NCBI GenBank assembly: GCA_963924565.1
Contig: OZ004613.1
Location: forward strand, 27,404,001 to 27,468,000
Direction of reading: 5' to 3'
DNA length: 64,000 nucleotides
From: Ascidiella aspersa
Lineage: Eukaryota
Under the pieces are notes generated by a model. That model had not been told where the DNA came from, did not search any database, and saw only the letters and a list, made by a program, of their open reading frames with translations. The stretch's first letter is position 1; each line of letters starts with the position of its first letter. The position numbers and the translations under genes are program-made. Below are positions 8,781-54,970 of the stretch, piece after piece.

Positions 8781-9567
8781 ATGCAGGCATCCGAGGGGAG
8801 TGGAAGTTGTAGCATCGTTTGAGATTGATCACGAGCTGCTATAATCTATTTATTAGGCATCGTTTTGTTTATTACATCTTTTAATTGAAAAGTTTTGCCA
8901 AGCTTTTTGATTGGACTGGATTTTAGTTCTATGTTTGCGCACGAGTTCGCTCGAGAACAGCAGGTGTTTTTGCGATGTGTAAAATAATTTGTGCCAGTTT
9001 ATGCATTTTCTGAGTAGGTTATTGGAAAATAAAATAAACACACAATAAACACGAATATTGCACACAATATTCACATGATAATTTTACAAGAAGGGTGACG
9101 TCTAAAAAAACTACGGAAAAATGAAAACACAACAGTTTTGCCATATAACCTTGTTTTCGTAATTGTGACCGCTTAAGTTGATTGTAATGTACAGCATATA
9201 GTGTTTTCGTCAACAACAGGACTGAAAGTAGAATACTTTTTTTAGATGAACTATGAAAAATTGTCTTACGGGAACGTGTCAAAATTTCAAAGATGACAAG
9301 ACGTCTAAGACAATTAATCTCAGGAAACATAAGGCTAACATTCGGATTTGTGCAGAAATGTGCATCTGAAATCTTAGTTGAAATACAGTCAAGGGGATGA
9401 AGGGAAAATTGTCTTGTGAAAAAATATTTTTTTAAGTTCCGCTGTACTGAAAAATGATATTTTACCGGATCGCCGTTCCACGTTCAACACTGGTCGAGAA
9501 CCATAACTTTACAAAACAGCATCGATATTGTGTAAAGTGTAATACGTGGCAAGACGAATCAAAGAAA

Positions 9568-15500: not shown

Positions 15501-15624
15501 TTGTGGACGTTACTATTATTTTGTTTAGAAGATTGTTATAGGCAATAAAAATAAAGATATAGGTGCTACCTTCACATTTCACAAGCAAAATTAGGAAAAT
15601 GGAAAGCAATAATTGATTTTCCAT
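9568..15624 (-). CDS. Predicted GPI-anchored protein with two CUB domains and an S/T-rich stalk, ~393 aa
   Basis: complement(join(9568..9731,10483..10629,11517..11636,12613..12785,13839..14013,14125..14297,14754..14928,15570..15624)). Signal MENQLLLSIFLILLVKCEG. CUB motifs INSPNYPNPFP..CTY..C.NDYISVYDG..CG..YFKSD..GF.IRY. Two homologous stalk exons (STKLDRTTP/STKLDQTIP). C-terminus NNAIGTLDQTEFQICKVLLILLSLFLLVNN* looks like a GPI signal. The stalk exons are less certain than the CUB exons. Confidence 0.8.
10746..11188. mobile_element. hAT-like MITE of the AAGTC/GACTT-repeat family
   Basis: CAGTGTTGTAA...TTACAACACG termini; many aagtc repeats; TSD catattgt/catattgg. Confidence 0.8.
12177..12602. 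mobile_element. AAGTC/GACTT-family hAT-like MITE (opposite orientation)
   Basis: CAGTGTTGTAA...TTACAACACTG; degenerate TSD ctagactt/ctacactc. Confidence 0.8.
12932..13710 (+). repeat. Nested direct repeats around a SINE in a CUB gene intron
   Basis: ~145-bp block at 12932-13078 recurs at ~13491-13635 with further partial copies; inner ~40-bp and ~26-bp blocks are also duplicated. Confidence 0.75.
13210..13283 (+). mobile_element. tRNA-derived SINE or tRNA-like element
   Basis: A-box TAGCTCAGTTGG, B-box GAGTTCGAACTC, acceptor stem GCCTGCA/TGCAGGC. Non-canonical anticodon loop and 6-nt T-loop. Diverged minus-strand copies at ~32852-32918, ~45720-45780 and ~57972-58037. Confidence 0.75.
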
Positions 15625-17184
15625 CTTCTTTGATTCTTCAAATTTTATTTGAAACACTTGGACTTGAGATATTTAAGTTACAAAAATACACAATTTATAA
15701 ATATCTTTACGACATAAGTAACCCTGAAAATTCGCAACAACCATCAACGTGACGTCAGACACTGAGCTATCCTTGGAAAACTTTTTCAAACCTGAATACA
15801 TAGCACCTTCACGATAAAGCACTAAACCTTTAAATTACGCCACACACTCAAAGGCTTACAGTCCCCATGCGCTTTAAATCAATAAAATGTCTGCATTGTT
15901 TCACGAACAATCCAAACGATTTTTTTAAGTTTGTTTACCGTTTGTAGTTATTGTGGAACCGGTTTCACAACACACGTACAAGTTGACAAAGGTTTATATT
16001 GTTGACACAAAGGTTGGACTGATTTAAACCCGGCGTAAGCCAACACTTCTCGTTAAAACCCGGCAAAACCTTACCGTTCGATTTGGTATTGACCTAACTC
16101 TAATTCATATTTCCGCTTTATTGCATATAGTTAGGCTGTGATGTTGTGTCTGAGATTATTGTATTGTGTTGACTGGAACGCACAACTTCAAGAGTGTTTC
16201 TCAACCCACAGGTCGCGACCAAAAGTCGGGTCAACGTTTGATTTGTTTGAGTAGCCGAATGCAATAATTATATATGGTTATATATTTTAAGATCGGTCCA
16301 GAGCACGATTTCTGTTGTAATGCTGCGTTTGAGTCAACATAATGCGGTAAACTCATACATACTGTAACCTTACAGTCTAACGATATACAATAAAGCGGAA
16401 ATGTTAGGTAAAGTTGCGACAATAGCAAATTGAACGGTAAGGTTTTGCCGGGTTTCAACGAGAAGTGTTGCCTTACGCCGGGTTTAAATCAGTCCAACCT
16501 TTGTGTCCACAATATAAACCTTTGTCAACTTGTACGTGTGTTGTGAAACCGGTTCCACAATAACTACAAACGGTAAATAAAACTTAAAAAAAAATCGTTT
16601 GTTTGTTCCTGACACCATGTAAAGCTTTTATTAATTTAAATTGCATGGGGACTGTGAACCTTTGAGTGTGTGGCGTAATTTGAAGGTTTAGTGCTTTATC
16701 GTAAAGGTGCTATGCATTCAGGTTGGAAAAGTTTTCCAAGGATAGCTCAGTGTCTGACGTCACGTTGATGGTTGTAGCGAATTTTCAGGGTTACTTGTGT
16801 CGTAATAATATTTGTCAATCATATATTGTTGTAACTTAAAAGTCTAAATGTGTTTCATAGAAAATTTGAAGAACCAAAAAAGATGGAAAATCAATTATCA
16901 CTTTTAATTTTCCTAATGTTGCTGGTGAAATGTGAAGGTAGCATCTTTATTTTTCTTTTTATTGCTTATAACAATTTTTGTAAAAAAATAATTTGTAATG
17001 TCCACAATTGGGCAAACAAAAATAAATAGTAAATTTCACAATTAAGAACTAATTTATTGCTACGTTAATCCACATTGTGAACTTTAATCTGTTTTTTTGT
17101 TGTTGTTATTTGTTTAGATAAAAGACGAATATATAACACGTTGTGAAATGAGACTTTATACAATTATTTCGTCTCTTTGAATTC
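15340..17184. repeat. Large inverted repeat (arms ~15340-16140 and ~16372-17184, spacer ~230 bp)
   Basis: Arms align as reverse complements, best conserved in the central part; each arm holds a MENQL... leader exon and a TGACGTCA site. Confidence 0.92.
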
Positions 17185-17997
17185 ATTAATATATTATCAA
17201 CATAATGTACACCTTTTTCGGTAAAATGCATCATTTATATTGCTTTCATAGTTACAAATACATTGATGTAGAAAATGAATAAAGAGTTATTCGAAACGTT
17301 CAAAATGATACACTTCTGTATGGGCTTTGATATTCTTATTACGTGTTACTACAACCTCCAACCATTATGCTCCAAAATATTATGAAATGATTTTAAAATT
17401 GCACTATGTTGTTTTTAAAATTTGATACAGATTGCCCAGCCAAAAATACGTCTGTGCTAACCAGTGGAAAAACGTTGGCAGCTTCTACGCCCGAAGTGAA
17501 AAAAACTTATCGACCGAATCTGCGTGAGTTCGTTCTAAAATTAGATCCTAAACTATTGTTATGCCTTATTTGTTCAGCTAAAATAGCTGCCTGATCTCAA
17601 AAATAACATAAGAAAACCCTAAGTGGAAATATCTAAGTGTAAAGTAGTGTTAGAATATTGTGAAAATTCGTCAGATTTTATTTAATTTGGCTGTAGTTTT
17701 CGAGATATTGGACAAGAAAAAAGGTTTCGCGGGCCGCATGTTTGACCTTTTTACAATCAGTGTTAAATGAATTGGAATAGGCTTTAAGTCTTTTTTGCGT
17801 TATTTACTGTTTTAAAATGATGTAGATTCTCAACCAACACATACGAATGTTAAAACGACAGTAGCACTTCGACAGCATATACTTCGACAGCTGTAAACAA
17901 CGCATTAGGAACGTTTGACCAAACCACAACTACATTCAGCGACATTGGAAAAGCGGTACTTGCCTTTTTTGCGACCATTCTTCTCTTCGACAGTTAA
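16883..17997 (+). pseudogene. CUB-less mirror paralog of the CUB gene (signal + S/T exon + GPI-signal exon); frameshifted or a minimal GPI glycopeptide
   Basis: Exons 16883..16937 (MENQLSLLIFLMLLVKCEG), 17431..17523 (DCPAKNTSVLTSGKTLAASTPEVKK..) and 17826.. The acceptor at 17826 gives a stop at 17894-17896. AVNNALGTFDQTTTTFSDIGKAVLAFFATILLFDS* (ends 17997) is in another frame and is homologous to the GPI exon at 9568-9731. Confidence 0.6.
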
Positions 17998-18794
17998 AAT
18001 ATCCAAAGCCTCTTTACGGTCAGCACTAAACGCAATATACCTATGATCAAGTCTGTGATTGTGACTATCGATACCAATACAGTATGTAACTATTGTATAT
18101 TAAAATCAATCTAAGTGCTTGTAATGGTTTATGTTTCTATTCTTAACTCTGATTTCTATGATATTTACCTCGGCGAGTTTCTCCTTTCATTGTTGCCTCT
18201 CTCCTTAATTATCATTATGAGTCCCGCGTCTCCATTGCATTTTTTCTTTATTACGCTTAGTCAGTTTTAGCTGAGTTCTCTATTTGGGTGCGGTACTCCT
18301 TATATATATATTCGTCATGTATTTAACACAGTTTTGTTACAGCAGCTATGTTGTAACTTATTGAATAAAGCTAGTAAAACGAAGTAAACGTACTTGATGT
18401 CGTTTATTGTTAGTTACTTCAGTGCTCAAGTTTATGGAAACAACTCTTAACCTTAAAACTCCTCTGATTTTGATTTTGTGTTATTTTTTCACAGTCGAAT
18501 ACGAATTGCGAAATCGCAATGTGAATACATAATGCATTATTCCTGTTTGGAGTATGTTTACTTCATTTACCGTAAGTGCAGGTATTAATTCGTCAAGTGG
18601 CCCAAACATTTTACCATGTTTATTGCAAACTCTCACGACCTTTTATGTTGTAATAATAAATATGTTTATATTAAACTTCATATTTTGAACATCAGTGGGC
18701 AACCCATCGCTTCTGTGCCTGGCCATTTGACTCGAAAAAAGCGAGATCATTTAGGAAAACTGAAAGTGACACCTTGTTTACATGATGGAAATTC

Positions 18795-18950
18795 GTTGTA
18801 CAGTAAAACTCTGAGGAAAAATTCAATCACTTGGGACAACTCTAAATCATTAAAAGACTACTTGATCTAACAATAATCTTTTGAAAAGTATTATATATAA
18901 AAGACCAATAATATAATCTATAAAAAACTACCAAAAAAGTATCCTGGATG
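18795..18950 (+). pseudogene. Possible decayed cytochrome c fragment
   Basis: YSKTLRKNSITWDNSKSLKDYL, then PKKYPG ~60 bp later, resembles the cytochrome c C-terminal half; no CxxCH found. Confidence 0.3.
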
Positions 18951-20633
18951 TGTAGACTACTGTGTATGTTTATGTAAGGTTATGTGACAATAAGGCTTAA
19001 AATGATCCGGCAGTTTATATCGTATAATTTTAAAACTATTTAAACGATGCTTGCAACCTAAGGGTTAAATTTTATTAAAGAATATTAATTTTTGACTAGT
19101 TTTCTATCTCTATTTGAGGGGGGACATAAACACATTTTCAGAGACGACGTGACGTCACAAAGTTACATCTAAACGTGACGTCATAAAGAAGTTATCTTAA
19201 TAACACCACACATTTCGATATTTTGTTATAGTTTTTAGTTTGGAGAGGGTTACTTTTAATCTAAATCCTATGTTACAAATATGTTATCAATTTACAAAAA
19301 GCAATAAACGCAAGCTAGAAATAAATGATATTTCGGTTGAATAGACGCCTTAAAGTTTATGTTTGTGTGTAGTTTATATTGAATTTTTATTTACAAACTT
19401 TACAAGTGCATTGTTTCCTTTTTGTTTTCATTAGAATATTTTTGCAAGCAGCTAGTTTTTTCTATACATAACTAACAACTTTAATGTAAAATAAATTTTA
19501 AGTTCACAAGAAGCAATAACGTATAATCGCTTCTCGCAAAACCTTTATGAAAGTGCATACAACCTACTTTCCACACATGTTTAATATTCATTGACGTCTA
19601 ACTGCAACATTCAGCCAATATGTTAAGTTTATTTCAAACTTACAACAATATATGTGACACGAACAAGCCTTTATTAAAGGCTGACCGTTGGTTGTGACAA
19701 GTTGCATTAAAATTAGTTCGAGAGCTTGTCGACGAAATCAGTGATGCTAGTTGCTGTGAACGCTGACTAAGCAATTGGAGAATCTATTAAAAAAGAAAAA
19801 AACACATTTCAAGTAAACTGATATTGTGACTTGGAATACACTTAGTGAATTAGATTGTGATTTATTATAGTTGTAATAACATCTTAAAGTTGTACATTTT
19901 CACTGACACAAAATTCGAAAAAAACCTTTTCAAAAGTAAAATATTTAAAGCACAATGTTTGGAGGTTGTAGTAAGACGTAGTAAACTACCGCAGCCAATA
20001 CAGAAGTAGGTATGATTTTTAAGTTCGAATATTTTTTTAATGAATAAAGAGTTATTCAAAACGTTCAAATTGATACCCATACTTTCGTATGGGATTTAAA
20101 ATTAAAAACATTTTTCATAAAACAATAAAAATGTATTATTAATATGCAATTGTCCATGTCAGCTGCCCAATTTAGTAAAATTACAATTAACGAATTAACA
20201 AGTTAATAAACAAGTGTGTTAGGTAGCTCTCGACTGTCACATGAACACGCGTGAATCGTGAAGTATTTTGCACCAACTGCACTCGCGCATACAATGGACG
20301 CATCGTAAGTTCACTTAATTAACCCGGGAATTTCGCGCTTTTCACTTTGAAATTTAATGGAATTCTGGCCTACGGGGCCAACTAGCGCCAATATAAAGCT
20401 TGCATTTTCTGTGTGTGGAGCAGTCGGCATCAGCACCAACTCAGTGAACTTCTACAACGCTGCAGAAACCAAACATAAAAGAGGAGAAAAATGAAACCAG
20501 ACGAAAAATCTAGACCTCAAACTTTGACGTTTCATTGTAACCAGGTTTGTGAATATATTAGATTTAATGTGATGAACCCTAATTTCGTTATAACTTAATA
20601 ATCGTTTAAACTTTAAACGGTACATTAAATGGC

Positions 20634-20960
20634 AGTGTTGTAATGACTTAAGTCAATGACTTTGTTTAAGTGCACTTAAGCCATTTTTGCAAATGACTCG
20701 ACTTGATTTAAGTTACAATGAAGGGTTTTCAGTATTTTTTTTTGAATTGAGTAACTTATCCTAATTTTTAAACATAAAACAATTTGCTTGTTATAAGGTT
20801 TTTTTATTCTTTTGTTCAGTTATTGCTCATTATCGTACGAGTTTAAATAAATTCTAATAATTTGGCGTTAAGGGCGTGGCTTGAAGTTGACTTGCTCTAA
20901 ATGTGATTTGACTGTAATTGACTTATTATTTGATTTCAAACGTTGATGATTTTCATGACT
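20634..20960. mobile_element. Partial AAGTC/GACTT-family MITE
   Basis: Begins CAGTGTTGTAATGACTTAAG and matches 28262-28640; right end truncated. Confidence 0.65.
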
Positions 20961-21271
20961 TTTAACTACGATATATAGAAAGTTATATACAACACAATTT
21001 TTGTAGTGTCTAACACACTGCGAAATTGGCGTTGTAGTGTTATAACAAAAGATGGAGTCATCATAATTAATCGAATCTATTTAAAACAAATACTTACCTA
21101 AACGAAGTATTCCTAATATTACGCAAACTCTTTTTGAAGGTAGGAAGCACTACAACGCAATACATACGTGCAATGTATTGTGCTTTCTTGAAACAATCAT
21201 CATCACTGAATGCCTTGTCGTGCATAGGACCCAAGTCGCAGTTTAACCGCACATAAAAATGCACAACCTAC

Positions 21272-23242
21272 CTGAAACTACGAATGCATTCCAGTACCAA
21301 ACGTAATCTACGCTGGTAATACCGTTCCTCGTTCCTCCAGGGAAACCGTCTTGTCCACCGTTCTTTTTGACAAAAACTTGTCCTCCGGTATCTAAAAATA
21401 GGTAAGTTCCTGATTTATTTAAATACAAAAAAAACTTTTTAAACATGCGTAATAAATAGATTGGCGCACACCTGACCAATGGCTTGACTGGAGTGCTAAG
21501 TCACTGTTTTTTAATGACTTTACTTGAGTTAAGTCGTTTCGGTAAAATTGTCTTAAATTTGTGGCATTTAGTCAACTTTTAAAGGTTTTCATTTAACACT
21601 TTGTAGTAAAACGGATTCATTTATTTCAATATTTGTAAGTAAATCATTTAAGATTGCGACAGTTTAAAAAAATTATTTATTGCTCAAAATCGGACGAGAT
21701 TACCAATTTTCATATTAGTATATTATTTTGGGTGTGTGCTGTATCGACCCTGTAATAAAAGGGCAAGCTTTAAACAAACTTCAACTTTCCGGAAATAATG
21801 AAAGATATACACACATACACGTGTTCAACAACTGTGATCTAGCCATCTATCTGAAGCTGAATTTTTGACCAACGATTACGGCTTAGTTATCATTAGTATA
21901 CCGAAATCCATCGCTTGCATCATTGGTCGACAGATTCGGTGAGTCTGCGACGCCTTTCGCTCTACTTTCGAATATAATGTTGAAAAAGGGATAACAAATT
22001 CGGTTACCTGTTATGACTCCAGCATGGATAGCCGCTCTGCAAATGGATGAGTCGATGGTGTAAATATCAATTCCCCAAACCAAATAATTAACCTCGTTTT
22101 GGCATCCGGCTGGACAGTCAATGCTAAATTTCTGGGCACTTTCGGAATTTGCCATTTTTGCGCAAACACCTGAGAAACGAAAGTTTTCATAATAGTTATA
22201 ACAGTGGATTTATAGAATTAAACTATTTAGAATACCTCTTCTATATCCAATGAAATAAAAAACATACTTTTCGGTTTTATCGTGATTTGTATAAAGCAAA
22301 ATCGATTTATTGCCGAAGTGAAATTGGAGTAAAAATGCCACGCATCTCCATCCAAAGCACATTAGGATAACTAAATCGCATTTATTTCAGCGAAAAAACA
22401 CATAACCTTACTCAGAAACTTCACCATTATATTTTTAGCTGTTGACATCTCTTAGATATGTTTATAGCGCTTAAGACAGCATACGTGACGAGCATCACGT
22501 TTCCAGTTTCATTTGCTGTCTCGAGGGACAAATGGCCGTAAATGTTAGACTGTCGGTATTCTAACCACATGTCGACTTAAGTCTTTTGAGCAAAGGACTT
22601 CACTTTGATTAATTATATCGTACATCTAAAAGCCTAGTTCGAATTTAACTGTGTTTTTTTCAACATTTTGTTAGAAAGCTAAGATTGTTTAACGATCAGT
22701 TTGTTACAATTGTTTTTTTTCTTCTAATTTTTTAGGTGTCGTATCATTTCAAAATGACTTAGTTACAGCATTGCTTGTCATTATTGTAAATAATGTTTTA
22801 ATTGCTCAATAATTTGACTTGTTTTTTCCAACGTACTATCCGCAGTGTCTTAATTGTATATTCCAACTAACTTTTTTCTATAACAATTTGTAGGGATAGT
22901 TTTCTTCCCTAAGCAGTATTGCTTTTGAGATGATTAGTATCGCGCTAACTACAAAAATCACTTGAATTGCATTACAGGAATTAAACTAATTATATATTAA
23001 CTAAAGTAATGTCCCCAGCTACAGATAAATGAGTTTCGAACGTTAATTCTATTTGCTATCGATCATGGCGTTCAGTTTTAGGTTTGGCAAAGCCTATCAT
23101 GCTGATGTACTATAAGACTTGTGTTAAAACAGTAAACTTATCTTAAATGTTTTTACCAACCATGCCACTTACTTGCACCCGATGCCATCCTGAGAAAAAA
23201 CATCCCAACAAACAACAACAAAAGTTGTTTTGAAATACTCAT
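21272..23242 (-). CDS. Divergent LCCL-domain protein, 3' exon(s) unresolved
   Basis: complement(join(21272..21391,22008..22169,23173..23242)). Signal [72 protein letters not shown]. Same exon phases as the other LCCL genes; no TM/tail exon found downstream. Confidence 0.8.
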
Positions 23243-25058
23243 TGCGCAATTAATACAACAGTCTTTTAAAATAGCAAACAACAAATAGTTTGAATTCTTT
23301 AAATTAAATATCCAATTGCCAACTCGATGCAACGTACAAAGCTCCTCAAGCTATTAGACACACACGCAGTGCAGAAAATGGGCCGTGAATGGTTTGCTCG
23401 TTATAATGCACGAGGAGTTGAAAAAAGTCAAGGGTCTCGGGAGACTAGCGATAGAGTTGCGCACGCATTCGCCTACGTGATTTTATGCAGGTCTACAAAA
23501 GTAACGCGGAAGGTGGATAGTTTCACTCTGGAAAGTAATACTCATCGTTGTAAAAATTATTTAGATATCACTTAATTCTCAGGAAGTCTTTTGTAAAAAA
23601 ACTAAATCTAGGTCGACAACTTAAGTCAAAGACGAGTCTTTTTGAATAAATAGCAAGTCAAGTTCCAGTCAAGGCGTGATTGAACAAGTCAATTCCAATG
23701 AATTCCGTGTCATAAAAATGTAAACTTTAAACTAATAAAATCGGCAAACTAGTCCGGTTCTGAGAAATAAGTCAAAAAATATCACGAAATGAAACATATA
23801 GCTACCAGACTGTTTCATGTACAAAACTTAAAATAAATTACTCATTTTTATAAAACAAATATAATGAAAGCACTTCCAAGTCATTTGTCCAACGACTTAA
23901 TATATTTCGTCTAACAAGTTAGACCACCAATGTGGCTATTATATACCGCAACGCAATTGCAACTGCAAAAATCGTTTTGTCGGTATACCTTTCTGCCCAT
24001 ATAATATTTTTATTTTTGGTGCTATAAATTAAAAACTTTACTGTTACGCAAGTGCACACACGATTTCTAAAAATAAGTATAGGTTCGTTTCACAGCCTAG
24101 CCATAAAGTGGTAACATTTTTTTCTACAGGAAAAACGTTTTTTTCCTCATTACAACTTGGTGTCCAGCGGTTACTTGGAAGTAACGCAAAACAATGTTTA
24201 CTTACAAAGCTCAAAATGTTTTTCATATTTGAATCTCATATTCAACCGTAGTAAAACAAAACATAATATCATGCTTATTTGATATATTATTTCACAGGTT
24301 TCGTATTTTTATGGCTACCGACTATTTTTGTCATGCTAAAGTCTTTTTATTGCATTTTGTCAAGTTTAAATACCCATGGGGCATGTAGTACTCAAATGTT
24401 AAATGTCGGCATATTGAAAACAATTCTTTGTGTGTGCGATCAAAGATATGTGCTGACCACTTATGTTTGCTGACATTAAAAATACTCGTGAGAACAGATT
24501 ACCTTTTTATCAGTGAACACGCACACTCGCACAGTAACAAATTTCGCGATAAAGTGCGTTTTATTGGAGTTTATACTTGATGCTTGGCTACAGTAGATGC
24601 TTTAAGTTGTAATTAATTGTTAACGATAGTGCGACCTTACTGCCAGCCTCACTGAATGTAATAAAGTATGTATAGTCTCAGTACGTATATAATTTTGTTT
24701 ACCAAACAAATACAATTATCTAAAACCGCAGAAATACGTGGGGCTACTACTAATAAATCACTTAAGCGTGAAAATTAAGTGTGGGTATCTTTATCAGATG
24801 TTAAAATAAATGTTTTCATAACAGTTGCTCACCGTTGTTTTCATAACAGTTGCTCACCGGAAGTATATGTCGCTAAGAATTATTGTTTTAGAAAATGGCT
24901 TATTGTGTTTTCTATTTTGTCGGAAAATTAGCTTCCATCACAGGAGTTGGGCGACAAATAAGTTTTTTTTCCATTAAATATTTTATAAAGCTAAAATAAG
25001 TTGTTTTGGTTATTCAATTTGTTTTTCATGTCGTTCATCTGTTCTTCGGTAGAAACAA

Positions 25059-27239
25059 TTACAATTCATACAACTGATTGTCAACTTCTCTTTTCTGATC
25101 TTCTAAATCTCTATCGCCGTATAAAACATTGTGAGCTTCTTCTTTATTGTTGTACAAAGCTTCGGTGTCTTCTTTTTTCTGATCGTTCGGTTTTGTCTGG
25201 CCGTATAAAATATTGTCGACTTCTTTTCTTTCGTCCTGATTCCACGAAGAGTAAACGGGATTGGATACAATTTCTCCTTTTTCAATATTGCTTGCAAATT
25301 CGTACGCGTTGTCAGATGCAGTTGTAATGTTTTTATCGTAACTTAAATACAAAACGTTGTTGGCCACTTCTCTTTCAACATGTAGTGCTGCGTCGAAGGG
25401 TTTTGTTTTATGTTCAGCAGACAGATTTTGCCTTTTGCGTCTTTTAGTTATGAAGCACACAACAAAGATAACTAACAAGATTGCGACTCCAGTTAAAACC
25501 AAACCAACAGCTAACCCCGTAGTGAAGGGTAACTGGCCATTCACTGGCGTTGTTTGGCGTTGAGCTGAGGTTGAGTTATGACTCGGCAAAGTAGATGGGT
25601 AGAAACTTATCGTCTGAGTATTACTTTGTACAGTTTTTATTAATGGTTTGAAGCCAGTGGTGGAAACTGCAATATCAATGACCTGCATGAAAGTTGTTGT
25701 CTGTTTTCTTGTTGAAATTAAATTCGATATTCTAGAAGTAGTACTTGCTGCTTGTGTTGATAACTTGGTGCTTGTAACAGCTATTTAAACAAAAAAGGAT
25801 CAGCACTTGGTTAGTAAATATGTTTAAAAAAACATTACTGAGATCAAGCTTAATAAAACATTCCAATCTTACTGCAATAGTCAATACTTAAAAATAAAAA
25901 AATCCTTCGATTTTTAGGTTTGTTTTAACAGGTAAAATTTTTATTCAACAGCATCATATCATCAGTGTTAAAATGCATGAAAGTTCTTTAATAGCGTCAA
26001 AAATTATTGCAGATGGAATGTAATATAAGCTTTACACAACAAAACGTAAACGATTTTACAAACTTTACCGGCAACTGAAAAGGAACTGTGATAACTCCCC
26101 CAATGTTTTGTAGTAATCTCATTCTTGGTACTTCCATCGTATCTGCTTAATCCCTCGATGTTATGAACAATAACAGGCCCTCCACTATCTTAAGGAAATT
26201 TGCCATTTTAGCTACCTAACATTACAATAAAACCTTTTGAACCATGATTGAGAAATAGAAATAATGTTGAAGGCCTTTAGTTCACTGAAATAAAATTAAA
26301 ATCTTTTCAAATACCATAATATTAATTGCGGTATTTATTTTTCTTGACTAAAATCCTGACTAGTTGCTTTATTATTGGAAACAAGTTACGAAGCAAAGTA
26401 TTTTGCCAAAAAAAGTAATTCCACGTTAAGTCACTTTCAATTAATAGCGCGCTAAGTGCAAGTGATATGCACACAAAAATAACTGTTACACTATTAAAAC
26501 ACCCTCGTCTCATTTTATCCAGACAAGTGTTTTTCGAGCAAATACCAAAACCTAAACATAAAGCATGGAAACTGATTTACGTGCACAGGTAAAAATATAG
26601 ACCCCTTGTGAAGATTTTGAACAGAAACCATGACATTCAGCTTTATGATTTTTTTGTAGATCAAATTATTATTGATTGAAATCACATCAAGTCAAGACTT
26701 TTTCAAGCAGTGTTGGACTTGAGGGTATACAAGTCATTAAATACTAATTTTTTGGCTACAGTTTCAAAAATCTAGTGTGTTATGATAAACTTGTTATTGC
26801 AATTACTTGTGATAACGCCGGCATGAATGGCCGCCTTGCAAATAGACGAGTCGGAAGTGTAAATATCGGTTCCCCAAACTCTTGTATTATCATTCCTGCA
26901 TCCTTGTGGACAGATGACAGTGAATATTTTTGAACTTTCTGAATCAGCCGTTTTACTGCAAGAAACTGCAAATAAAGTTCAATGTTACCATTATCATGAA
27001 GAAATATTTATAAAAAAAAATCATCTAAACAAAAGGTGACCACAACTGTTAACTGCTCAAGAACGCAAAATTCCTGTACACTTGTTTATAAGAAGAATTA
27101 TTTACTGAATTAATTGTCATGCTATTAGCAAATCACCTGCACTGTTTACCAATAGGGGTAACTCAATCCAAATCAATATCCATAACAGTTGTTTTGTTCT
27201 CAATCTGCCTTTCAATATAACGAAGGCAATTAAAGCCAT
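25059..27239 (-). CDS. LCCL receptor copy 1, intact (signal-LCCL-S/T stalk-TM-NxxY-repeat tail), ~367 aa
   Basis: complement(join(25059..25780,26069..26188,26807..26965,27137..27239)). [86 protein letters not shown]. Tail NVLY, NAY, NPVY, NILY, ALY, NVLY, NQLYEL. The ATG used by copies 2 and 3 is lost (TTG at 27203); an in-frame ATG lies at 27239. Confidence 0.85.
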
Positions 27240-37619: not shown

Positions 37620-39800
37620 TTATTCAATTTGTTTTTCATTTCGTTCATCTGTTCTTCGGTAGAAACAATTACAATTCATACAACTGATTGTCAACTTCTC
37701 TTTTCTGAGCTTCGAAATCTCTATCGCCGTATAAAACATTGTGAGCTTCTTCTTTACTGTTGTACAAAGCTTCGGTGTCTTCTTTTTTCTGATCTTTCGG
37801 TTTTGTCTGGCCGTATAAAATATTGTCGACTTCTTTTCTTTCGTCCTGATTCTACGAAGAGTAAACGGGATTGGATACAATTTCTCCTTTTTTAATATTG
37901 CCTGCAAATTCGCAGTTGTAATGTTTTTATCGTAACTTGAATACAAAACGTTGTTGGGCACTTCTCTTTCAACATGTAGTGCTGCGTCGAAGGGTTTTGT
38001 TTTATGTTCAGCAGACAGCTTTTGCCTTTTGCGTCTTCTAGTTATGAAGCACACAACAAAGATAACTAACAAGATTGCGACTCCAGTTAAAACCAAACCA
38101 ACAGCTAACCCCGTAGTGAAGGGTAACTGGCCATTTACTGGCATTGTTTGGCCTTGAGCTGAGGTTGAGTAACGAGTCGTTGAAGTAGACAGATAAAAAG
38201 CTTCCGTGTGAGGGTGAGCATTGCTTTGAACAGTTTTTATTAATGGTTTGAAGCCAGTGGTGGAAACTGCAATATCAATGACCTGCATAAAAGTTGTTGT
38301 CTGTTTTCTTGTTGAAATTAAATTCGATATTCTAGAAGTAGTACTTGCTGCTTGTGTTGATAACTTGGTGCTTGTAACTGCTAATTAAACAAAAATGATT
38401 AGTACTTGTTTAAATATATTATAAAAAACATTACTGAGATCAAGCTTAATAAAACATTCCAATCTTACTGCAATAGTCAATACTTAAAAATAAAATAATC
38501 CTTTGATTTTTAGGTTTGTTTTAACAGGTAAAATTTTTATTCAACATCATCATATCATCAGTGTTAAAATGCATGAAAGTTTTTTAATAGCGTCACAGAT
38601 TATTGCAGATGGAATGTAATATAAGCTTTACACAACAAAACGTAAACGATTTTACAAACTTTACCGGCAACTGAAAAGGAACTGTGATAACTCCCCCAAT
38701 GTTTTGTAGTAATCTCATTCTTGGTACTTCCATCGTATCTGCTTAATCCCTCGATGTTATGAACAATAACAGGCCTTCCACTATCTTAAGGAAATTTGCC
38801 ATTTTAGCTACCTAACATTACAATAAAACCTTTTGAACCATGATTGAGAAATAGAAATAATGTTGAAGGCCTTTAGTTCACTGAAATAAAATTAAAATCT
38901 TTTCAAATACCATAATATTAATTGCGGTATTTATTTTTCTTGACTAAAATCCTGACTAGTTGCTTTATTATTGGAAACAAGTTACGAAGCAAAGTATTTT
39001 GCCAAAAAAAGTAATTCCACGTTAAGTCACTTTCAATTAATAGCGCGCTAAGTGCAAGTGATATGCACACAAAAATAACTGTTACACTATTAAAACACCC
39101 TCGTCTCATTTTATCCAGAGAAGTGTTTTTCGAGCAAATACCAAAACCTAAACATAAAGCATGGAAACTGATTTACGTGCACAGGTAAAAATATAGACCC
39201 CTTGTGAAGATTTTGAACAGAAACCATGACATTTAGCTTTATGATTTTGTTGAGATCAAATTAATATTGATTGAAATCACATCAAGTCAAGACGTTTTCA
39301 AGCAGTGTTGGACTTGAGTGTATACAAGTCATTAAATACTAATATTTTGGCTACAGTTTCAAAAATCTAGTGTGTTATGAAAAACTTGTTATTGCAATTA
39401 CTTGTGATAACGCCGGCATGAATGGCCGCCTTGCAAATAGACGAGTCGGAAGTGTAAATATCGGTTCCCCAAACTCTTGTACTATCATTCCTGCATCCTT
39501 GTGGACAGATGACAGTGAATATTTGAACTTTCTGAATCAGCTTTTTTACTGCAAGAAACTGCAAATAAAGTTCAATGTTACCATTATCATGAAGAAATAT
39601 TTATAAAAACAATCATCTAAAGTAAACAAAAGGTGACCTCAACTGTTTACTGTTCAAGAACGCAAAATTCCTGTAGACTTGTTTATAGGAAGAAATATTT
39701 ACTGGCATAATTGTCATGCTATTAGCAAATTACCTGCACTGTTTACCAATAGGGGTAACGCAGTCCAAACCAATATCCACAAGAGTTGTTTTGTCTTCAT
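37620..39800 (-). pseudogene. LCCL receptor copy 2 with two frameshifts
   Basis: Exons 39734..39800 (MKTKQLLWILVWTALPLLVNSA), 39402..39558 (157 bp versus 159 bp: 2-bp deletion), 38665..38784 and 37620..38380 (16-bp deletion near 37912 shifts the tail frame). Confidence 0.8.
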
Positions 39801-41382
39801 TGCACGTTGTATCTGCCTTTCAATATGACGAAAGCAATTAAAGCCATAGATACTATTTGAAATAAACTTCTTACTTAATTAATTGTCTTCAAATCAACTC
39901 TTTCCTCGATAAAGGGATGCGCGGACAGTATTTGCCAAATATTTGTGATTATTGTCTTATTTTAGTCTTGTTTTGTCATATTTTAGTCCAACACTTCCTG
40001 CTTTTGTGATGCAGCAGAGTTCAATAAAGTTATGCTTAACTGAACTGCTTGACAGGCTATTGCCCGGTTTATATCAATCAAAAAATCATGACTACATCTG
40101 TTCCACAACCTTTTACGCTCCTTCATTATTCATGCAACTATGCGTAACTAAACCTACCTACGCTTTCTGTATACGTGTCTACAAGTGCGTGCCGACAATA
40201 ATAATAAGTTAATGTTTTTATATTGATTTAGTTTGTCGTTTATAAATTTCCCCATTAGTCTACCGATGTATACCTTTTTAAAAAAGTAACTGTAGGTTTC
40301 CTATGTTCGTCGGAATTCTCGCATATACTATAAATGCAACCATTAAAAGTAAAATGAAACAGGATGTACAAAGCTTCTCAAAAAGTAAAAAAAAAATGAA
40401 AAAAAAATAATGTTTTTTTTCTATGTAGGATACCCAAATGAAGAGTTTATGTCGACTATCTTTGACGTAATTTTGTGTAATTGGTGAAGTGAAAACAGGG
40501 ATCCTTCGGAATAAAATTCAGGCCACTTCACATAACGTTTATTCGCGACCCATTGCACAAACTTTAGTTGTACCATTTTGCTTTAAAATTCTCAAGTAAA
40601 TCTAAAACATACCAATTCTTGTTTTTTTATAGTGCATTTCGAGTGTTGCTTAATATTTTATTGATTACAGATCATAACCTTCCAAAAAGTAAATAATAGA
40701 GTAGTTGAATTAAGTAATTCTCACGAGTAACGTCACTTAAAAGGTATGGAACCACTGACATAAGGTCTGTAGCATTGTTGTAAAGACTTAAGGTAATGAC
40801 TTGACTTAAACTGTTTTAAATGACTTGAATTGACTTTAAGTCTTTTCAAATTACTCAGGTTGGAATGAACTGTTTTCCTTAAGTATGTTTTTTAAATTGA
40901 GCTATTTCTCAAAATGTTTGCACATAAAACAAATATTGTCTTTTTCTTACTTTTTAGTTCATTTATTGTTCATAATCGTACTATTTTAAAAGTTATAATA
41001 GTTTAACGTTTTATTTTTATGACAAGGACGTGACTTGAAGTTAACTTGCTCTAATTATGACTTGGCTGGGATTATTATGACTTGGTTATTAATTCAAAAA
41101 GACTTGCCTTGGACTTCAGTTATTTTAAAATGACATGTTTACCACACTGGTCTGTAGTATGATATTACTAATCAAGTAACAAAATTCCTGGCCATAATTT
41201 GACATCGCAGTAGCATACCTCGATTTATTGTCACTATTAAAGGTTACAAATAATAGCACAAAAACGCAAATGACAACGTCACAGGCACTAATGCCACAAA
41301 GACAGCACAAAAAACACAAAGCTAACATAGAGTAGGTGATAAGGCAAAAGAGTTGAAGTGGGTGTTCTGTGTTAATGTACAG

Positions 41383-48252: not shown

Positions 48253-51152
48253 TACGTGGCCAATGCACCAGTAGTTTGATATGATTAAAACAGTAAAAGT
48301 ACTTTTTTATAAAAACTGAATAACTCAATTTCATTTAAATATAATAGTTCTCTTCTTTTAAACAGGCTGTGCTCAGTGCTTTTTACTATACTTATTTGCC
48401 ACGAAGTTGACTAAAGATAGACCTTATTATGCAGCCTTATTACCTTATCGTAAATCTTGTGCCTATAGTAGGGGTTTGACGCAGTATTTCCAATACGCCT
48501 TAGCAATAAGGAAATCATGACCACGTCAAACTGCCTATTCAACCTTTCACTTCCCCTTATTGTTCGTGCTGCTTTCTAATTCCCCATCATGTACTGTATT
48601 AATCTTATTTCCGCATTACTTTACACCTGACAACACTTACAGGTGTAAACCTTTTGATCAAGTATAAGAAATGTTCAGCTTTAAAACTTTAGCACGTGGA
48701 TACAATCTGAATCAGTCTTCTGTAAATATTGATAACGCAAAAGATATTCCAACTCACCTATATAGGATTTACCGTATCTTTCTACAATATTTTAGTTTTT
48801 ATCTCTCAGTGTTATTCGTTCAAGTTTTTCATAAATAAACCGATCAGATATCTGTAAAAATCAAATGCAATACAATCGACTTAAGGGGTTTGTATATTGC
48901 AACCGTTTCATGATAAAATTGGCTCAGTAAGAAAGGGTTCAGCCAATCAACTTTAATTTAATGACATTTTCAACCGCGGCATGTTTCAACAAGTGTCACA
49001 TCAGTTTAGTCAAACGTTTCCATACGAGAAAAAAACTAATGATCGCCTGTAGTTGATTATAGAAAGTAATATTATTCAAGTCTGTTTGACTAAGTTTTGG
49101 AAATTCGGCTAACAAAATGATATGGTGCCCCTCACCCCTTGGTGCAGTGTTCACGTGTTTATTTTGCTTAATGGTTGATCCAGAAATAATTAGTCAAACA
49201 GAGTTGAATAAAATTACGTTCTATAATCAACTACAGGCGATCATTAGTATATCACTGCTCTTGATTTACGTCGCAAGTGAAGATTCCTTATAGGCTTCTT
49301 TCGCTCTTTCGACAAGTTTAGACATGAATAAGGTTTCTTAGAAACGGTGACACACTGAATTACTAACAGCTTTAATTTAGCAAGGTATAGCACATGTCGC
49401 AAAACAATACACAGAAATAAATCGAACCCACATTTGCGATACAGAAGTCGCACACAGGATCATTGATACTCATAAATTTAAAGCGAGCCATGCGTTTGTT
49501 CGACAGTCAAGCTGTTGCAGTATAGTTCGCAATTAGAGGCCTTAATACTTTGGTGCCCTATATATGTAATTGAGGGTCAAGTTGTGATCAATTTTTTTGG
49601 AAATAATTCTCATACCTTTAAACATTTATTGCGAGGTTTAAGATGATACTTGAGAAAGAAAAATAAGTAAAATATTATTTCAACCTTGCTAATTTGAGGT
49701 CTGAGTCGTTTGACTATAGTTATTTCATTAAACATCGATTAGTCTATAAGGAACCTTTCACAACCGACTATTTTTGTCATGTTAATGTCTTTTTATTGCA
49801 TTTTGTCAAGTTTAAATACCCATAGGGCATGTAGTACTCGAATGTTAAATGTCGGCATATTAAAAACATTTCTTTGTGAATGCGATCAAAGGTATTTGCT
49901 GACCACTTATGTTTGCTGACATTAAAAATACTCGAGAACAGATTACCTTTTTATCAGTGAACACGCACACTCGCACAGTAACCAATTTCGCGATAAAGTG
50001 CGTTTTATTGGAGTTTATACTTGATGCTTAGCTACAGTAGATGCTTTAAGTTTTAATTAATTGTTAACGATAGTGCGACCTTACTGCCAGCCTCACTGAA
50101 TACAATAAAGTATGTATAGTCTCAGTATGTATATAATTTTGGTTACCAAACAGATACAATTATCTAAAACCGCAGAAATACGTGGGGCTAATACTAATAA
50201 ACCACTTAAGCGTGAAAATTAAGTGTGGGTATCTTTATCAGATTTTAAAATAAATGTTTTGATAACAGTTGCTCACCGTTATTCTTCAGACTGGCGTAAA
50301 ACTGTTAAAAAGTAAGTCTTTCATGAAATGCACGGAAGTATATGTCGCTGAGAATTATTGTTTTAGAAAATGACTTATTATGTTTTCTAATTTGTAGGAA
50401 AAATAGCTTCCATCACAGGAGTTGGGCGATAAATAAGTTTTTTTTCCATTAAACATTTTATAAAGCTAAAATAAGTTGTTTTGGTTATTCAATTTGTTTT
50501 TCATGTCGTTCATCTGTTCTTCGGTAGAAACAATTACAATTCATACAACTGATTGTCAACTTCTCTTTCTGAGCTTCTAAATCTCTATCGCCGTATAAAA
50601 CATTGAGCTTATTCTTTATTGTTGTACAAAGCTTCGGTGTCTTCTTTTTTCTGATCTTTCGGTTTTGTCTGGCCGTATAAAATATTGTCGACTTCTTTTC
50701 TTTCGTCCTGATTCCACGAAGAGTAAACGGGATTGGATACAATTTCTCCTTTTTCAATATTGCCTGCAAATTCGTACGCGTTGTCAGATGCAGTTGTAAT
50801 GTTTTTATCGTAACTTAAATACAAAACGTTGTTGGCCACTTCTCTTTCAACATGTAGTGCTGCGTCGAAGGGTTTTGTTTTATGTTCAGCAGACAGATTT
50901 TGCCTTTTGCGTCTTCTAGTTATGAAGCACACAACAAAGATAACTAACAAGATTGCGACTCCAGTTAAAACCAAACCAACAGCTAACCCCGTAGTGAAGG
51001 GTAACTGGCCATTTACTGGCATTGTTTGGCCTTGAGCTGAGGTTGAGTAATGAGTCGTTGAAGTAGACAGATAAAAAGCTTCCGTGTGAGGGTGCGCATT
51101 GCTTTGAACAGTTTTTATTAATGGTTTGAAGCCAGTGGTGGAAACTGCAATA

Positions 51153-52653
51153 TCAATGACATGCATAAAAGTTGTTCTGTTTTCTTGTTGAAATTAAATT
51201 CGATATTGTAGGAGTAGTACTTGCTGCTTGTGTTGCTAACTTGGTGCTTGTAACTGCTAATTAAACAAAAATGATGAGTACTTGTTTAAATATATTATAA
51301 AAACATTACTGAGATCAAGCTTAGTAAAACATTCCAATCTTACTGCAATAGTCAATACTTGAAAATAAAAAAATCCTTCGATTTTTAGGTTTGTTTTAAC
51401 AGGTAAAATTTTTATTCAACAGCATCATATCATCAGTGTTAAAATGCATGAACGTTCTGTAATAGCGTCACAAATTATTGCAGATGGAATGTAATACAAG
51501 CTTTACACAACAAAACGTAAAAGATTTTACAAACTTTACCGGCAACTGAAAAGGAACTGTGATAACTCCCCCAATGTTTTGTAGTAATCTCATTCTTGGT
51601 ACTTCCATCGTATCTGCTTAATCCCTCGATGTTATGAACAATAACAGGCCCTCCACTATCTTAAGGAAATTTGCCATTTTAGCTACCTAACATTACAATA
51701 AAACCTTTTGAACCATGATTTAGAAATAGAAATAATGTTGAAGGCCTTTAGTTCACTGAAATCAAATTAAAATCTTTTCAAATACCATAATATTAATTGC
51801 GGTATTTATTTTTCTTGACTAAAATCCTGACGAGTTGCTTTATTATTGGAAACAAGTTACGAATCAAAGTCGTTTGCATAAAAAAGTAATTCCATATGCA
51901 CACAAAAATATTTGATATGCACACAAAATAATTGTTACACTATTAAAGCACCCTCGTCTCATTTTATCCAGACAAGTGTTTTTCGAGCAAATACCAAAAC
52001 CTAAACATAAAGCATGGAAACTGATTTACGTGCACAGGTAAAAATATAGACCCCTTGTGAAGATTTTGAACAGAAACCATGACATTTAGCTTTATGATTT
52101 TTTGAGATCAAATTATTATTGATTGAAATCACATCAAGTCAAGACTTTTTCAAGCAGTGTTGGACTTGAGTGTATACAAGTCATTAAATACTATTTTTTG
52201 GCTTCTGTTTCAAATATCTAGTGTGTTATGAAAAACTTGTTATTGCAATTACTTGTGATAACGCCGGCATGAATGGCCGCCTTGCAAATAGACGAGTCAC
52301 AAGTGTAAATATCGGTTCCCCAAACTCTTGTACGATCATTCCTGCATCCTTGTGGACAGATGACAGTGAATACTTTCGAACTTTCTGAATCAGCCGTTTT
52401 ACTGCAAGAAACTGCAAATAAAGTTCAATGTTACCATTATCATGAAGAAATATTTATAAAAACAATCATCTAAAGTAAACAAAAGGTGACCACAACTGTT
52501 TACTGTTCAAGAACGCAAAATTCCTGTAGACTTGTTTATAGGAATTAATATTTACTGGCATAATTGTCATGCTATAAGCAAATCACCTGCACTGTTTACC
52601 AATAGGGGTAACGCAGTCCAAACCAATATCCACAAGAGTTGTTTTGTCTTCAT
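51153..52653 (-). CDS. LCCL copy 3: predicted secreted truncated form (or pseudogene); out-of-frame TM/tail remnant continues to ~50540
   Basis: complement(join(51153..51256,51540..51659,52253..52411,52587..52653)). Signal and LCCL are intact. A 2-bp deletion near 51176 gives ..STRKQNNFYACH* before the TM. A second stop lies at 50609 in the old tail frame. Confidence 0.65.
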
Positions 52654-54970
52654 TGCACGTTGTATTTGCCTTTCAATATGACGAAAGCAATTAAAGCCAT
52701 AGATAATATTTGAAATAAACTTCTTACTTTATTAATTGTCTTCAAATCAACTCTTTCCTCGATAAAGGGATGCGCGGACAGTATTTGCCAAATATTTGTG
52801 ATTATTGTCTTATTTTAGTCTTGTTTTGTCATATTTTAGTCCAACACTTCCTGCTTTTGTGATGCAGCAGAGTTCAATAAAGTTATGCTTAACTGAACTG
52901 CTTGACAGGCTATTGCCCGGTTTATATCAATCAAAAAATCATGACTACATCTGTTCCACAACCTTTTACGCTCCTTCATTATTCACGCAACTATGCGTAA
53001 CTAAACCTACCTACGCTTTCTGTATACGTGTCTACAAGTGCGTGCCGACAATAATAATAAGTTAATGCCTTTACATTGATTTAGTTTGTTGTTTATAAAT
53101 TTCCCCATTAGTCTACCGATGTATACCTTTTTAAAAAAGTAACTGCAGGTTCCCCATTTTCGTCGGCATTCTCGCATATACTCTATAAATGCAATCATTA
53201 AAAGGAAAATGGAAGACGATGTACAAAGTTTATTAAAAAAACGTCTCTTACGTAATTTTGTGTAATTGGTGAAGTGAAAACAGGGATCCTTCGGAATAAA
53301 GTTCAAGCCACTTCACATAACGTTTATTCGCGACCCATTGCACAAACTTTAGTTGTACCATTCTTTAAATGCTCAGAGTAAATCTAAGACTTACCAATTC
53401 TTGTTTTTTATAGCGCATTTCGAGTGTTGCTTAATATTTTATTGATTACAGATCATAACCTTCCAAAAAGTAAATAATAGAGTAGTTGAATTAAGTAATT
53501 CTCACGAGTAACGTCACTTGAAAGGTCTGGAACCACTGACATAAGTCTGTAGCAGTTTTGTAATGACTTAAGGCAATGACTTGACTTAAACTGTTTTAAA
53601 TGACTTGAATTGACTTTAAGTCTTTTCAAATCACTCAGGTCGGAATGAACTGTTTTCCTTAAGTATTTTTTTTAAATTGAGCTATTTCTGAAAGTCTTTG
53701 CACATAAAACAAATATTGTCTTTTTCTTACTTTTTAGTTTATTTATTGTTCATAATCGTACTATAGTTTAAAAGTTATAATAGTTTAACGTTTTATTTTT
53801 ATGACAAGGACGTGACTTGAAGTTGACTTGCTCTAATTATGACTTGACTGGGATTATTGTGGCTTGATTATTTATTCAAAAAGACTTGCCTTGGACTTCA
53901 GTTATTTTAAAATGACGTGTTTACCACACTGGTCTGTAGTATGGTATTACTAATCAAGTAACAAAATTCCTGGCCATAATTTGACATCGCAGTAGCATAC
54001 CTCGATTTATTGTCACTATTAATAGCACAAAAACGCAAATGACAACGTCACAGGCACTAATGCCACAAAGACAGCACAAAAAACACAAAGCCAACATAGA
54101 GTAGGTGGTGAGGCAAAAGAGTTGGAGTGGGTGTTGAGTAATTATTTTTAGCCGCCGGCCGCATGAGGAACTTAAAGTGCTGTGGCGGGCCGAGTCAAAA
54201 ATAGGATGTGGTATACACGCAATATGACGTCATACGAAATCAAAAAAGCTACCCAATTTGTTATTACGTTTGGAGTTGTGCAAAAATTTGCAATTTAATT
54301 CGAATTTAAAGTAGGTCACGAGACATCGTGCGAAGCGCGAAACAATTGCGGCTATGTTTGTTTTAAAGTGCAAAATTTAATTTAGTTTTGGGGTTATGTG
54401 AAGCATTAAGCAGAGGCAAAAAATGTACATTGCTTGATATATTGGCGTTTGTAGGGCTCGTTGACCCAAAAGTTTAGATTAAAATACGTAAAAATTCGGT
54501 ACAAAAACGTACCATGTTTTCGCGTAAAGCGGGAAAACAATTTTCGTTATAGTATTTAAATCAGGCTAAAAATCGAATTTGACGGGGTCTTGACTAAATC
54601 CGTCAACTTGCCCTTATTTTCGCTTAGCTTATGTATTTTAAGCAAAATAGGCCGCAGGCCGAATTAAAATGCTTAGCGGGCCGTGCCGTATGTTGCCGCA
54701 ATCTGGTCTACAGTAACCAAAACAAGACATGTTTGCGATTTCCTTTAATTTTCGAAGACTTAAGATACTCGGACCAGGTGACGACTGTGGCTTGACATTT
54801 TGTTTCTAAGCAAACAGTATAGAAATCATACGATTTTATAAATATTGTGTTTAAATGACGCTAAATTTGTACAATTATTTTGTAAATGAAGGTGCAATAT
54901 GATAGAATATAGTTCTGCAATATGATAGAATACAGTTGTAAAGAGCTGATTCCAGTTGGCAAAGCAAGAG

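Follow-up and report, generated by a model that had tools for sequence, protein, structure and literature searches.

Which proteins would read the cytoplasmic tail of an ascidian receptor in which one N-x-x-Y motif is repeated five times? The question arises from a 64,000-nucleotide stretch of Ascidiella aspersa DNA (contig OZ004613.1, positions 27,404,001 to 27,468,000; hereafter the window), in which a sequence-only reading had noticed such an array behind an LCCL domain and had proposed an endocytic or phagocytic receptor or, alternatively, a multivalent adaptor scaffold.

The focal gene and its tandem copies

As read from the DNA, the focal gene comprises four exons on the minus strand, with AG/GT ends and phase 1 at every junction, which yield a model of 367 residues (Table 1). 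The protein consists, in this order, of a signal-peptide-like start, a single LCCL domain, a Ser/Thr stalk, one transmembrane helix and a tail of 128 residues; Pfam recognised a single LCCL domain in the model, and CUB, discoidin, EMI/EGF and Ig-superfamily heads are absent from it. With regard to transcripts, the part of RNA run X7 that was read (about 6 in 100) gave reads only on repeats and none in the bins covering 24600-27126. Run X4, used as an other-species comparison, gave a single 49-letter piece at a depth of 2.1. The FE65 gene of this genome is closest to that of Phallusia mammillata (64%), ahead of Styela (42%) and vertebrates (about 40%), as befits an ascidian.

The gene belongs to a unit of roughly 12.6 kb, repeated three times in the window, in which the LCCL gene was co-duplicated with a SUEL-lectin gene. 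Both further LCCL copies are broken by frameshifts. The 16-nt deletion in the tail of copy 2 was also present in a contig of run X1, and the break is therefore real in the DNA and not an assembly slip. Three tail variants were found in run X1, and one tail-spanning contig with 10 differing letters and no gap in run X2. Raw reads of run X6 covered the focal gene 4.3-7.8-fold, compared to 6.3-fold expected for one copy; there are hints of copy-number variation of this gene, read depth being an unsafe guide here. Exon 1 of copies 2 (39734-39847) and 3 (52587-52700) contains 11 extra bases and a further ATG, from which a signal peptide of 22 residues begins, and exon 1 of copy 1 (27137-27239) is without those bases and has the upstream ATG in frame.

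Table 1. Features of the focal gene and of its relatives in the window (window positions)
Feature	Position	Strand	Basis or remark
Focal exon 1, signal-peptide-like, 34 aa, phase-1 donor	27137..27239	-	ATG and GT donor from sequence; prediction
Focal exon 2, N-terminal LCCL part	26807..26965	-	Pfam LCCL, E 9.7e-18; cochlin LCCL 1jbi, E 2.5e-07
Focal exon 3, C-terminal LCCL part	26069..26188	-	Pfam LCCL positions 61-96, E 0.00075, below cut-off on its own; AG/GT, phase 1-1
Focal exon 4, Ser/Thr stalk, transmembrane helix and entire tail	25059..25780	-	Sequence
Transmembrane helix, then KRRKR stop-transfer	25446..25514	-	Sequence
Motif 1, EVANNVLY	25347..25370	-	N, V, L, Y invariant in 5/5 paralogs
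Second motif class N-x-Y-x-(F/V), here NAYEF	25296..25310	-	N and Y invariant in 5/5 C7 paralogs; 7/7 rows including three C6 tails
Motif 2, IVSNPVY, sole strict NPxY of the focal tail	25251..25271	-	Sequence
Motif 3, EVDNILY	25203..25223	-	E, V, D, N, L, Y invariant in 5/5 paralogs
Decayed repeat EDTEALY (LY retained, Asn gone)	25152..25172	-	Aligns with NxLY motifs of paralogs
Motif 4, EAHNVLY	25119..25139	-	Sequence
Motif 5, EVDNQLY, with C-terminal Y-x-L-stop (EVDNQLYEL*)	25059..25088	-	Sequence
Tandem copy 2	37669..39847	-	Frameshifted in LCCL exon and tail
Tandem copy 3	50534..52700	-	Stalk frameshift; stop and frameshift after motif 3
Diverged intact LCCL paralog, three NxxY motifs	Exons 2048-2111, 3724-3882, 4336-4455, 5320-5972	+	
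Co-duplicated neighbour, six-exon SUEL-lectin receptor, 256 aa	29801..35233; copies 42336-48252, 54974-60355	-	Pfam SUEL, E 6.7e-12

Tyrosine motifs of the tail and selection on them

The five motifs quoted in the sequence-only reading were all recovered in one open frame of exon 4, and the three that it quoted for the plus-strand paralog were found in the last exon of that gene. Its general formula, (E)VxNxxY or NPxY, held only in part: N-x-x-Y is present in 5/5, Val occupies position -5 relative to the tyrosine in 3/5 (Ala in the others), and Pro occupies -2 in 1/5. Five N-x-x-Y were observed in the tail versus 0.86 expected (p 0.0003; 200,000 shuffles) and five N-x-[LVI]-Y versus 0.15 expected, a count that no shuffle of 200,000 reached, both patterns having been chosen post hoc with the tail already seen. 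A second conserved motif, N-x-Y-x-(F/V/M), missed in the sequence-only reading, stands ahead of the array on C7 and C6. In an allele with an in-frame 3-nt deletion (3/7 X6 reads), motif 1 loses one Asn and retains N-V-L-Y at the standard spacing. Four of the five intact C7 paralogs end in YEL, YDL or YHL, which we take to be a putative class II PDZ-type end.

In line with the earlier statement that no ITIM or ITAM is present, no ITIM, ITSM or dileucine pattern was found in any of the five intact C7 tails, and neither YxxPhi nor YxxL nor an ITAM in the focal tail, where YxxP occurs at none of the eight tyrosines.

The sequence-only reading had also suggested purifying selection on the motifs. 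When the five intact C7 tails were aligned, pairwise identity was 89% in the motif core (the Asn, -1 and Tyr positions of three aligned motifs), 41% in the 86 other tail columns and 54% in the transmembrane helix, for five related paralogs in an alignment anchored on the motifs and with small counts. Since 44% of the identical core codon pairs differ silently, the DNA had time to change, and on this sequence evidence the motifs are under purifying selection. The invariant columns numbered 21, with 18 lying within -7..+2 of a tail tyrosine; Asn columns were invariant in 3/4 cases within motifs and in 0/6 outside the core, and at the Tyr positions of the three aligned motifs all codons (15/15) encode Tyr and none Phe. 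Allelic changes listed for runs X2 and X6 comprised 11 non-synonymous and 2 synonymous codons, none of the 11 in a motif, a count that left out two rows from the L006 paralog and three found only in the copy-2 contig of X1. Some repeats have decayed (EDTEALY, LSDQLY, NHAVY), and single copies are thus dispensable.

With regard to residue preferences, the 21 C7 motifs have Val (18) or Ala (3) at -5, Pro at -2 in 5, Leu at -1 in 18, Lys/Arg at -8 in 20 and Glu at -6 in 13, and the 26 motifs of eight C2 exons have Val at -5 in 26, Pro at -2 in 23 and Leu at -1 in 26, although both sets include many recent duplicates (13 and 8 distinct motifs) and Asn at -3 follows from the definition of the count. 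As far as sequence goes, this agrees with the PTB/FERM-type ligand pattern Phi-x-N-x-x-Y, with Asn at -3, a hydrophobic residue at -5 and conservation beyond the flanks. It disagrees with the FxNPxY clathrin pattern, no aromatic residue occurring at -5 in any of the 47 motifs. Exact NPLY is present in 2/5 intact C7 paralogs and absent from the focal tail. Motif number varies among paralogs, as had been claimed, from 3 to 5 on C7 and from 2 to 5 on C2, the array growing by 51-nt units, which in L007, L008 and L009 are near-identical in DNA. The earlier suggestion of a putative multivalent adaptor scaffold is likewise supported.

Predicted reuse of one tail exon behind different heads

A genome search with the transmembrane helix and tail returned nine matches, namely the three tandem copies (four rows), four diverged C7 paralogs, all within 140 kb, and one match on C2. 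Of the five intact paralogs, three have LCCL exons ahead of the stalk-transmembrane-tail exon. In the other two (L008 and L007), SUEL-lectin exons lie upstream, with splice phases compatible with the tail exon; no LCCL match within 30 kb upstream of L008 or L007 was found among the matches listed (150 of 167 candidates scored). Over 43 residues, the SUEL heads of L008 and of the window neighbour share 63% identity; the neighbour's own tail differs from the focal one and carries YVEM, YENH and the ITIM-consensus VEYVTI. Going by the order and phase of the exons, the cluster is expected to contain receptors of three kinds (LCCL-repeat, SUEL-repeat and SUEL-ITIM), mixed and matched as in paired receptors.

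Several further features of this region were recorded. The lectin domain of the SUEL neighbour has NNC in copies 1 and 3 and DPC, a rhamnose-binding motif, in copy 2. A further stalk-transmembrane exon paralog lies downstream of duplicated SUEL exons at C7:27515288-27515818 (L015); its tail ends before the first motif, and adhesion-GPCR-like gene fragments follow. Mucin2 WxxW domain exons occur among the SUEL exons of the cluster (L014:1065-1400, L016:3776-4291). Within the window, a minus-strand gene at 8000-22300 contains an LCCL exon (about 22.0-22.2 kb) and CUB exons (12.6-15.0 kb, with a piece near 8.0-8.2 kb), and an inverted duplication is present at 15329-17196. To the left, single-exon ORFs of about 870 residues at C7:27369045-27371645 and 27381420-27384056 have, by inspection, a putative NB-ARC/NACHT-like P-loop start, and next to them is a CA repeat longer than 2.5 kb.

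When a C2 exon served as the query, 30 matches were obtained, and 19 of these fall within C2 6.0-7.05 Mb, where the exons upstream of the array encode C-type lectin domains and a transmembrane helix. In the two C2 genes examined, a tail exon with YxxL/I/V (SH2-type) motifs such as VQYSSI and AVYSAV precedes the array, and the AVYSAV type fits the 'core-2' motif of Botryllus FcoR (PMC12582321). In the C2 region (L024-L041, L065-L067), many C-type-lectin type I receptors are clustered, with YxxL/I/V motifs and with NPLY arrays of a 17- or 20-residue period; a neighbour, L024:2792-4620, has the ITIM-like VEYSTL and no array was seen in it. On C6, at 28.75-28.78 Mb, transmembrane receptors with another head carry M/T-V-x-N-x-L-Y at 17-residue spacing, and none of four ectodomain pieces matched Pfam, CUB included.

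The spacers of the C7, C2 and C6 arrays were alike in register (p 0.0003-0.0008 for +1..+10; 0.004-0.03 for +1..+8), and no such likeness was found between these and the crab arrays (p 0.57-0.89), the test resting on 7 (C7), 6 (C2), 3 (C6) and 5 (crab) distinct, mutually non-independent units. We read this likeness as putative common ancestry of the three arrays within the ascidian, and exon order and phase predict that the tail exon was reused behind different ectodomains.

Genome-wide, DNA patterns of the array showed no overall excess (299 versus 277 in the control; 215 versus 217). Matches were locally clustered, with 44 of the first 100 listed falling in C2 5.84-7.04 Mb, 3 of these being a dispersed repeat. 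Two sets of candidates were discarded: 'MVFNPLY', next to LCCL exons on C4, arises when an LCCL exon is read out of frame, and three C1 stretches contain no V-x-N-x-L-Y array. LCCL domains are much expanded in this genome: scoring of 150 out of 167 candidates gave at least 111 exon matches, and tandem runs lie at C7 9.39-9.42 Mb, C1 36.49-36.51 Mb and C4 10.03-10.08 Mb.

Similar arrays in other organisms

Protein searches with focal exon 4 (0/393 candidates) and with the repeat alignment (0/7995) returned no relative, and Atlas look-ups gave only scores under 0.9. A profile search of 1.84 billion proteins produced five matches, no ascidian relative among them: two crab receptors, a mussel receptor with one motif, an unnamed repeat protein without a clear transmembrane helix, and an ankyrin protein that proved spurious. 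The ENA model P0125, of 212 residues, has seven M-K-R-N-V-V-Y copies at 16-17-residue spacing.

The receptors of Eriocheir sinensis (LOC126997834 and LOC126993052; P0122, P0130) share with the ascidian ones a signal peptide, a small head, a Thr-rich stalk, a transmembrane helix and then a V-x-N-x-L-Y-type array, with V-V-E-N-S-L-Y at 17-residue spacing in 4-9 copies, numbers that differ between annotated RefSeq isoforms and may be tandem-repeat artefacts. They differ in an unrelated head and dissimilar spacers, and since the spacers are unlike in register, the crab array is likely convergent. The 17-residue spacing is not independent evidence, because the query profile partly selects it and one C2 group has 20 residues instead of 17. 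In literature on ascidian NPxY/PTB lectin receptors, tunicate ITIM lectin expansions and Botryllus co-receptors (titles and abstract starts, mostly open-access), no such arrays were found. The LCCL and SUEL versions, the predicted exchange of heads on a single tail exon, the cluster of C-type-lectin receptors and the common 17-residue unit appear to be new here.

A putative phosphotyrosine dock for PTB adaptors

Gene anatomy, selection on the motifs, array growth and candidate adaptor genes could all be read from the DNA. Our preferred reading of the tail, to which we give roughly even odds (about 0.5), is a multi-site phosphotyrosine scaffold for PTB adaptors of the Dok/FRS2 or Shc type, similar to CD200R. 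The LCCL or lectin head would bind a surface glycan or microbe and the receptor would cluster; a Src-family kinase would then phosphorylate the tail tyrosines, and each phospho-NxLY would bind one PTB domain, so that signal strength would be set by the number of 17-residue units. By analogy with CD200R-Dok2-RasGAP, a damping output would be likelier than an activating one.

Judged by the motifs, the largely proline-free N-x-L-Y is a better fit for Dok/IRS-type PTBs that depend on phosphorylation, or for the FERM domain of SNX17, than for the readers named earlier; neither of these was considered in the sequence-only reading. Dok1 reportedly prefers N-x-L-pY, as Songyang is said to have found in 2001, and the RET site shows Leu at -1 without Pro, like the C7 motifs. 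The frequent Leu at -1 with rare Pro at -2 on C7 matches this preference and counts for a Dok-type reader. Glu at -6 in 13/21 C7 motifs counts against Dok1-type reading, as the Dok1 consensus has Tyr/Met there. RET is a known Dok1 ligand (bioRxiv 10.64898/2026.07.03.735260), and IRS/Dok- and Shc-class PTBs bind phosphorylated motifs and Dab-class PTBs unphosphorylated ones (PMC3938774). The SH2-type motifs ahead of the C2 unit and VEYVTI in the SUEL neighbour suggest that the C2 and C7 clusters use tyrosine signalling.

Among potential readers, the genome encodes IRS, Shc, Numb and three Dok/FRS2-like PTB exons, which resemble the Dok homology motif (PMC7550416), as well as SNX17; introns interrupt the Dok and Shc PTBs, and the IRS PTB is single-exon. 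Two FRS2/Dok-like PTB genes, C3:16.085 Mb (L046) and C5:30.81 Mb (L048), are 61% identical over one exon and keep the RRYG arginines, while the second pair is absent (GNG and GHY instead of GRR); the third (C1:14.23 Mb) keeps one arginine of each pair, and no better-matching Dok PTB than these three was found in the genome. The second arginine pair is needed for phosphotyrosine binding in Dok1 (PMC4919572). The missing phosphate-binding arginines hence weaken the assignment to Dok or else point to a lineage-specific reader.

Foremost among the alternatives is that the motifs are unphosphorylated recycling signals, each N-x-x-Y being bound by the FERM domain of SNX17, which would hand the receptor to Retriever for surface retention, more repeats giving more avidity. 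SNX17 reads NxxY/F with no proline requirement stated (PMC11589680; PMC9006456), 21/21 C7 motifs fit, and SNX17 is encoded in the genome; nevertheless, Tyr is invariant where Phe would serve SNX17 equally, which counts for phosphotyrosine reading, and the conserved N-x-Y-x-Phi motif has no SNX17 reading. In addition, we know of no sorting signals that need three to nine copies, and we consider this explanation unlikely. By analogy with integrin tails, which swap talin for Dok1 on phosphorylation (PMC12173946 and bioRxiv 10.1101/2020.10.06.327742), a PTB dock and SNX17 recycling could coexist as a phospho-switch.

The endocytic or engulfment receptor proposed earlier, after CED-1/Draper and with motifs binding Dab, ARH, Numb or CED-6/GULP, fared poorly. 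Lectin-type heads suit uptake, Numb is present, and strict NPxY occurs once in the focal tail and in 23/26 motifs of the C2 receptors; yet the clathrin signal of Dab/ARH/Numb is FxNPxY (PMC2882754), and its aromatic -5 is found in 0/21 C7 and 0/26 C2 motifs. The focal tail is also devoid of YxxPhi, dileucine, YxxL and ITAM, and the head of EMI/EGF. An exon-limited search of the genome gave nine PID matches, none of which was recognised as Dab, ARH or GULP. A role in uptake or engulfment now seems quite improbable. Slightly less credible again is an integrin-beta-like adhesion tail, whose unphosphorylated NxxY would bind the FERM/PTB lobes of talin or kindlin as a link to actin: tandem NxxY together with a V-x-N-P-x-Y at the end is reminiscent of integrin beta tails, and the best IRS-family match in the genome is one that we take, from its sequence, to be talin, but acidic, variable spacers and an unconstrained number of motifs count against it, and no alpha-subunit-like partner was seen. 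That the array simply results from 51-nt tandem duplication and does little, a view to which the near-identical DNA units of L007, L008 and L009 and the breakage of two of three tandem copies would be congenial, is largely refuted by the conservation test and hardly to be believed, given residues fixed while motif codons differ silently, Asn columns invariant in 3/4 versus 0/6, 0/11 non-synonymous allelic changes in motifs and an independent array in crab receptors.

A wider version of the phosphotyrosine dock is that the 17-residue V-x-N-x-L-Y unit may be a third class of transferable immunoreceptor tyrosine module, alongside ITAM and ITIM, that PTB adaptors read, with an ancestral tail shuffled behind LCCL, SUEL-lectin, C-type-lectin and a fourth head, copy number acting as gain control and crustaceans having converged on it. 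We advance this tentatively and think it rather unlikely as a whole. Screens of invertebrate receptor repertoires for ITAM and ITIM would score such a receptor as having no signalling motif. To our knowledge, CD200R is the sole vertebrate immune receptor with a PTB-based pathway; if the dock is real, that type of pathway would be a reusable, dose-tunable module in the vertebrates' sister group, and natural tails with 2 to 9 copies would form a series relating motif number and spacing to signal output. Were the motifs a recycling signal instead, the array would merely be an unusual trafficking one.

Comparison with known receptor systems

SNX17-Retriever cargoes (integrins, the LDLR family and APP; PMC11589680, PMC9006456) share the tail N-x-x-Y, and differ from the receptors described here, which have a repeat array, invariant Tyr, Leu at -1 and a second tyrosine motif. 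CED-1, Draper and MEGF10 are likewise single-pass receptors with an NPxY-type motif (strict in 1/5 focal motifs), but combine an EMI/EGF head with a single NPxY and YxxL/ITAM (PMC8092387), none of which is present in this form in the focal receptor. The fester co-receptors (FcoR) of Botryllus schlosseri (PMC12582321) are also clustered ascidian type I receptors with tyrosine motifs; their neighbouring genes duplicate in pairs and vary in copy number, and the LCCL and SUEL genes, likewise co-duplicated, may do so too. The FcoR have Ig-superfamily heads, ITIM, hemITAM and core motifs, in contrast to the focal receptor, which has no such head or ITIM, and 'NPxY' and 'PTB' occur nowhere in the main text of that paper.

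DCBLD1 and DCBLD2 are LCCL receptors with a repeated tail tyrosine motif that is phosphorylated by Src-family kinases and Abl, and they illustrate that a receptor of this kind can serve as a multi-tyrosine scaffold (PMC6029619). Like the focal protein, they are type I receptors with LCCL outside and many conserved copies of one tyrosine motif; unlike it, they possess CUB and discoidin domains and YxxP for the SH2 domain of CRK/CRKL, whereas the focal repeat is PTB-shaped and without YxxP. Finally, CD200R achieves ITIM-free inhibition via NPLY-Dok2-RasGAP (PMC13613202) and is, as is the focal receptor, a single-pass protein without ITIM in which a PTB-type N-x-L-Y is the signalling element, putatively so in the ascidian. 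It differs in its Ig domains and single motif, where the heads of the ascidian receptors are LCCL or lectin domains and their tails contain three to five motifs, most of them without Pro.
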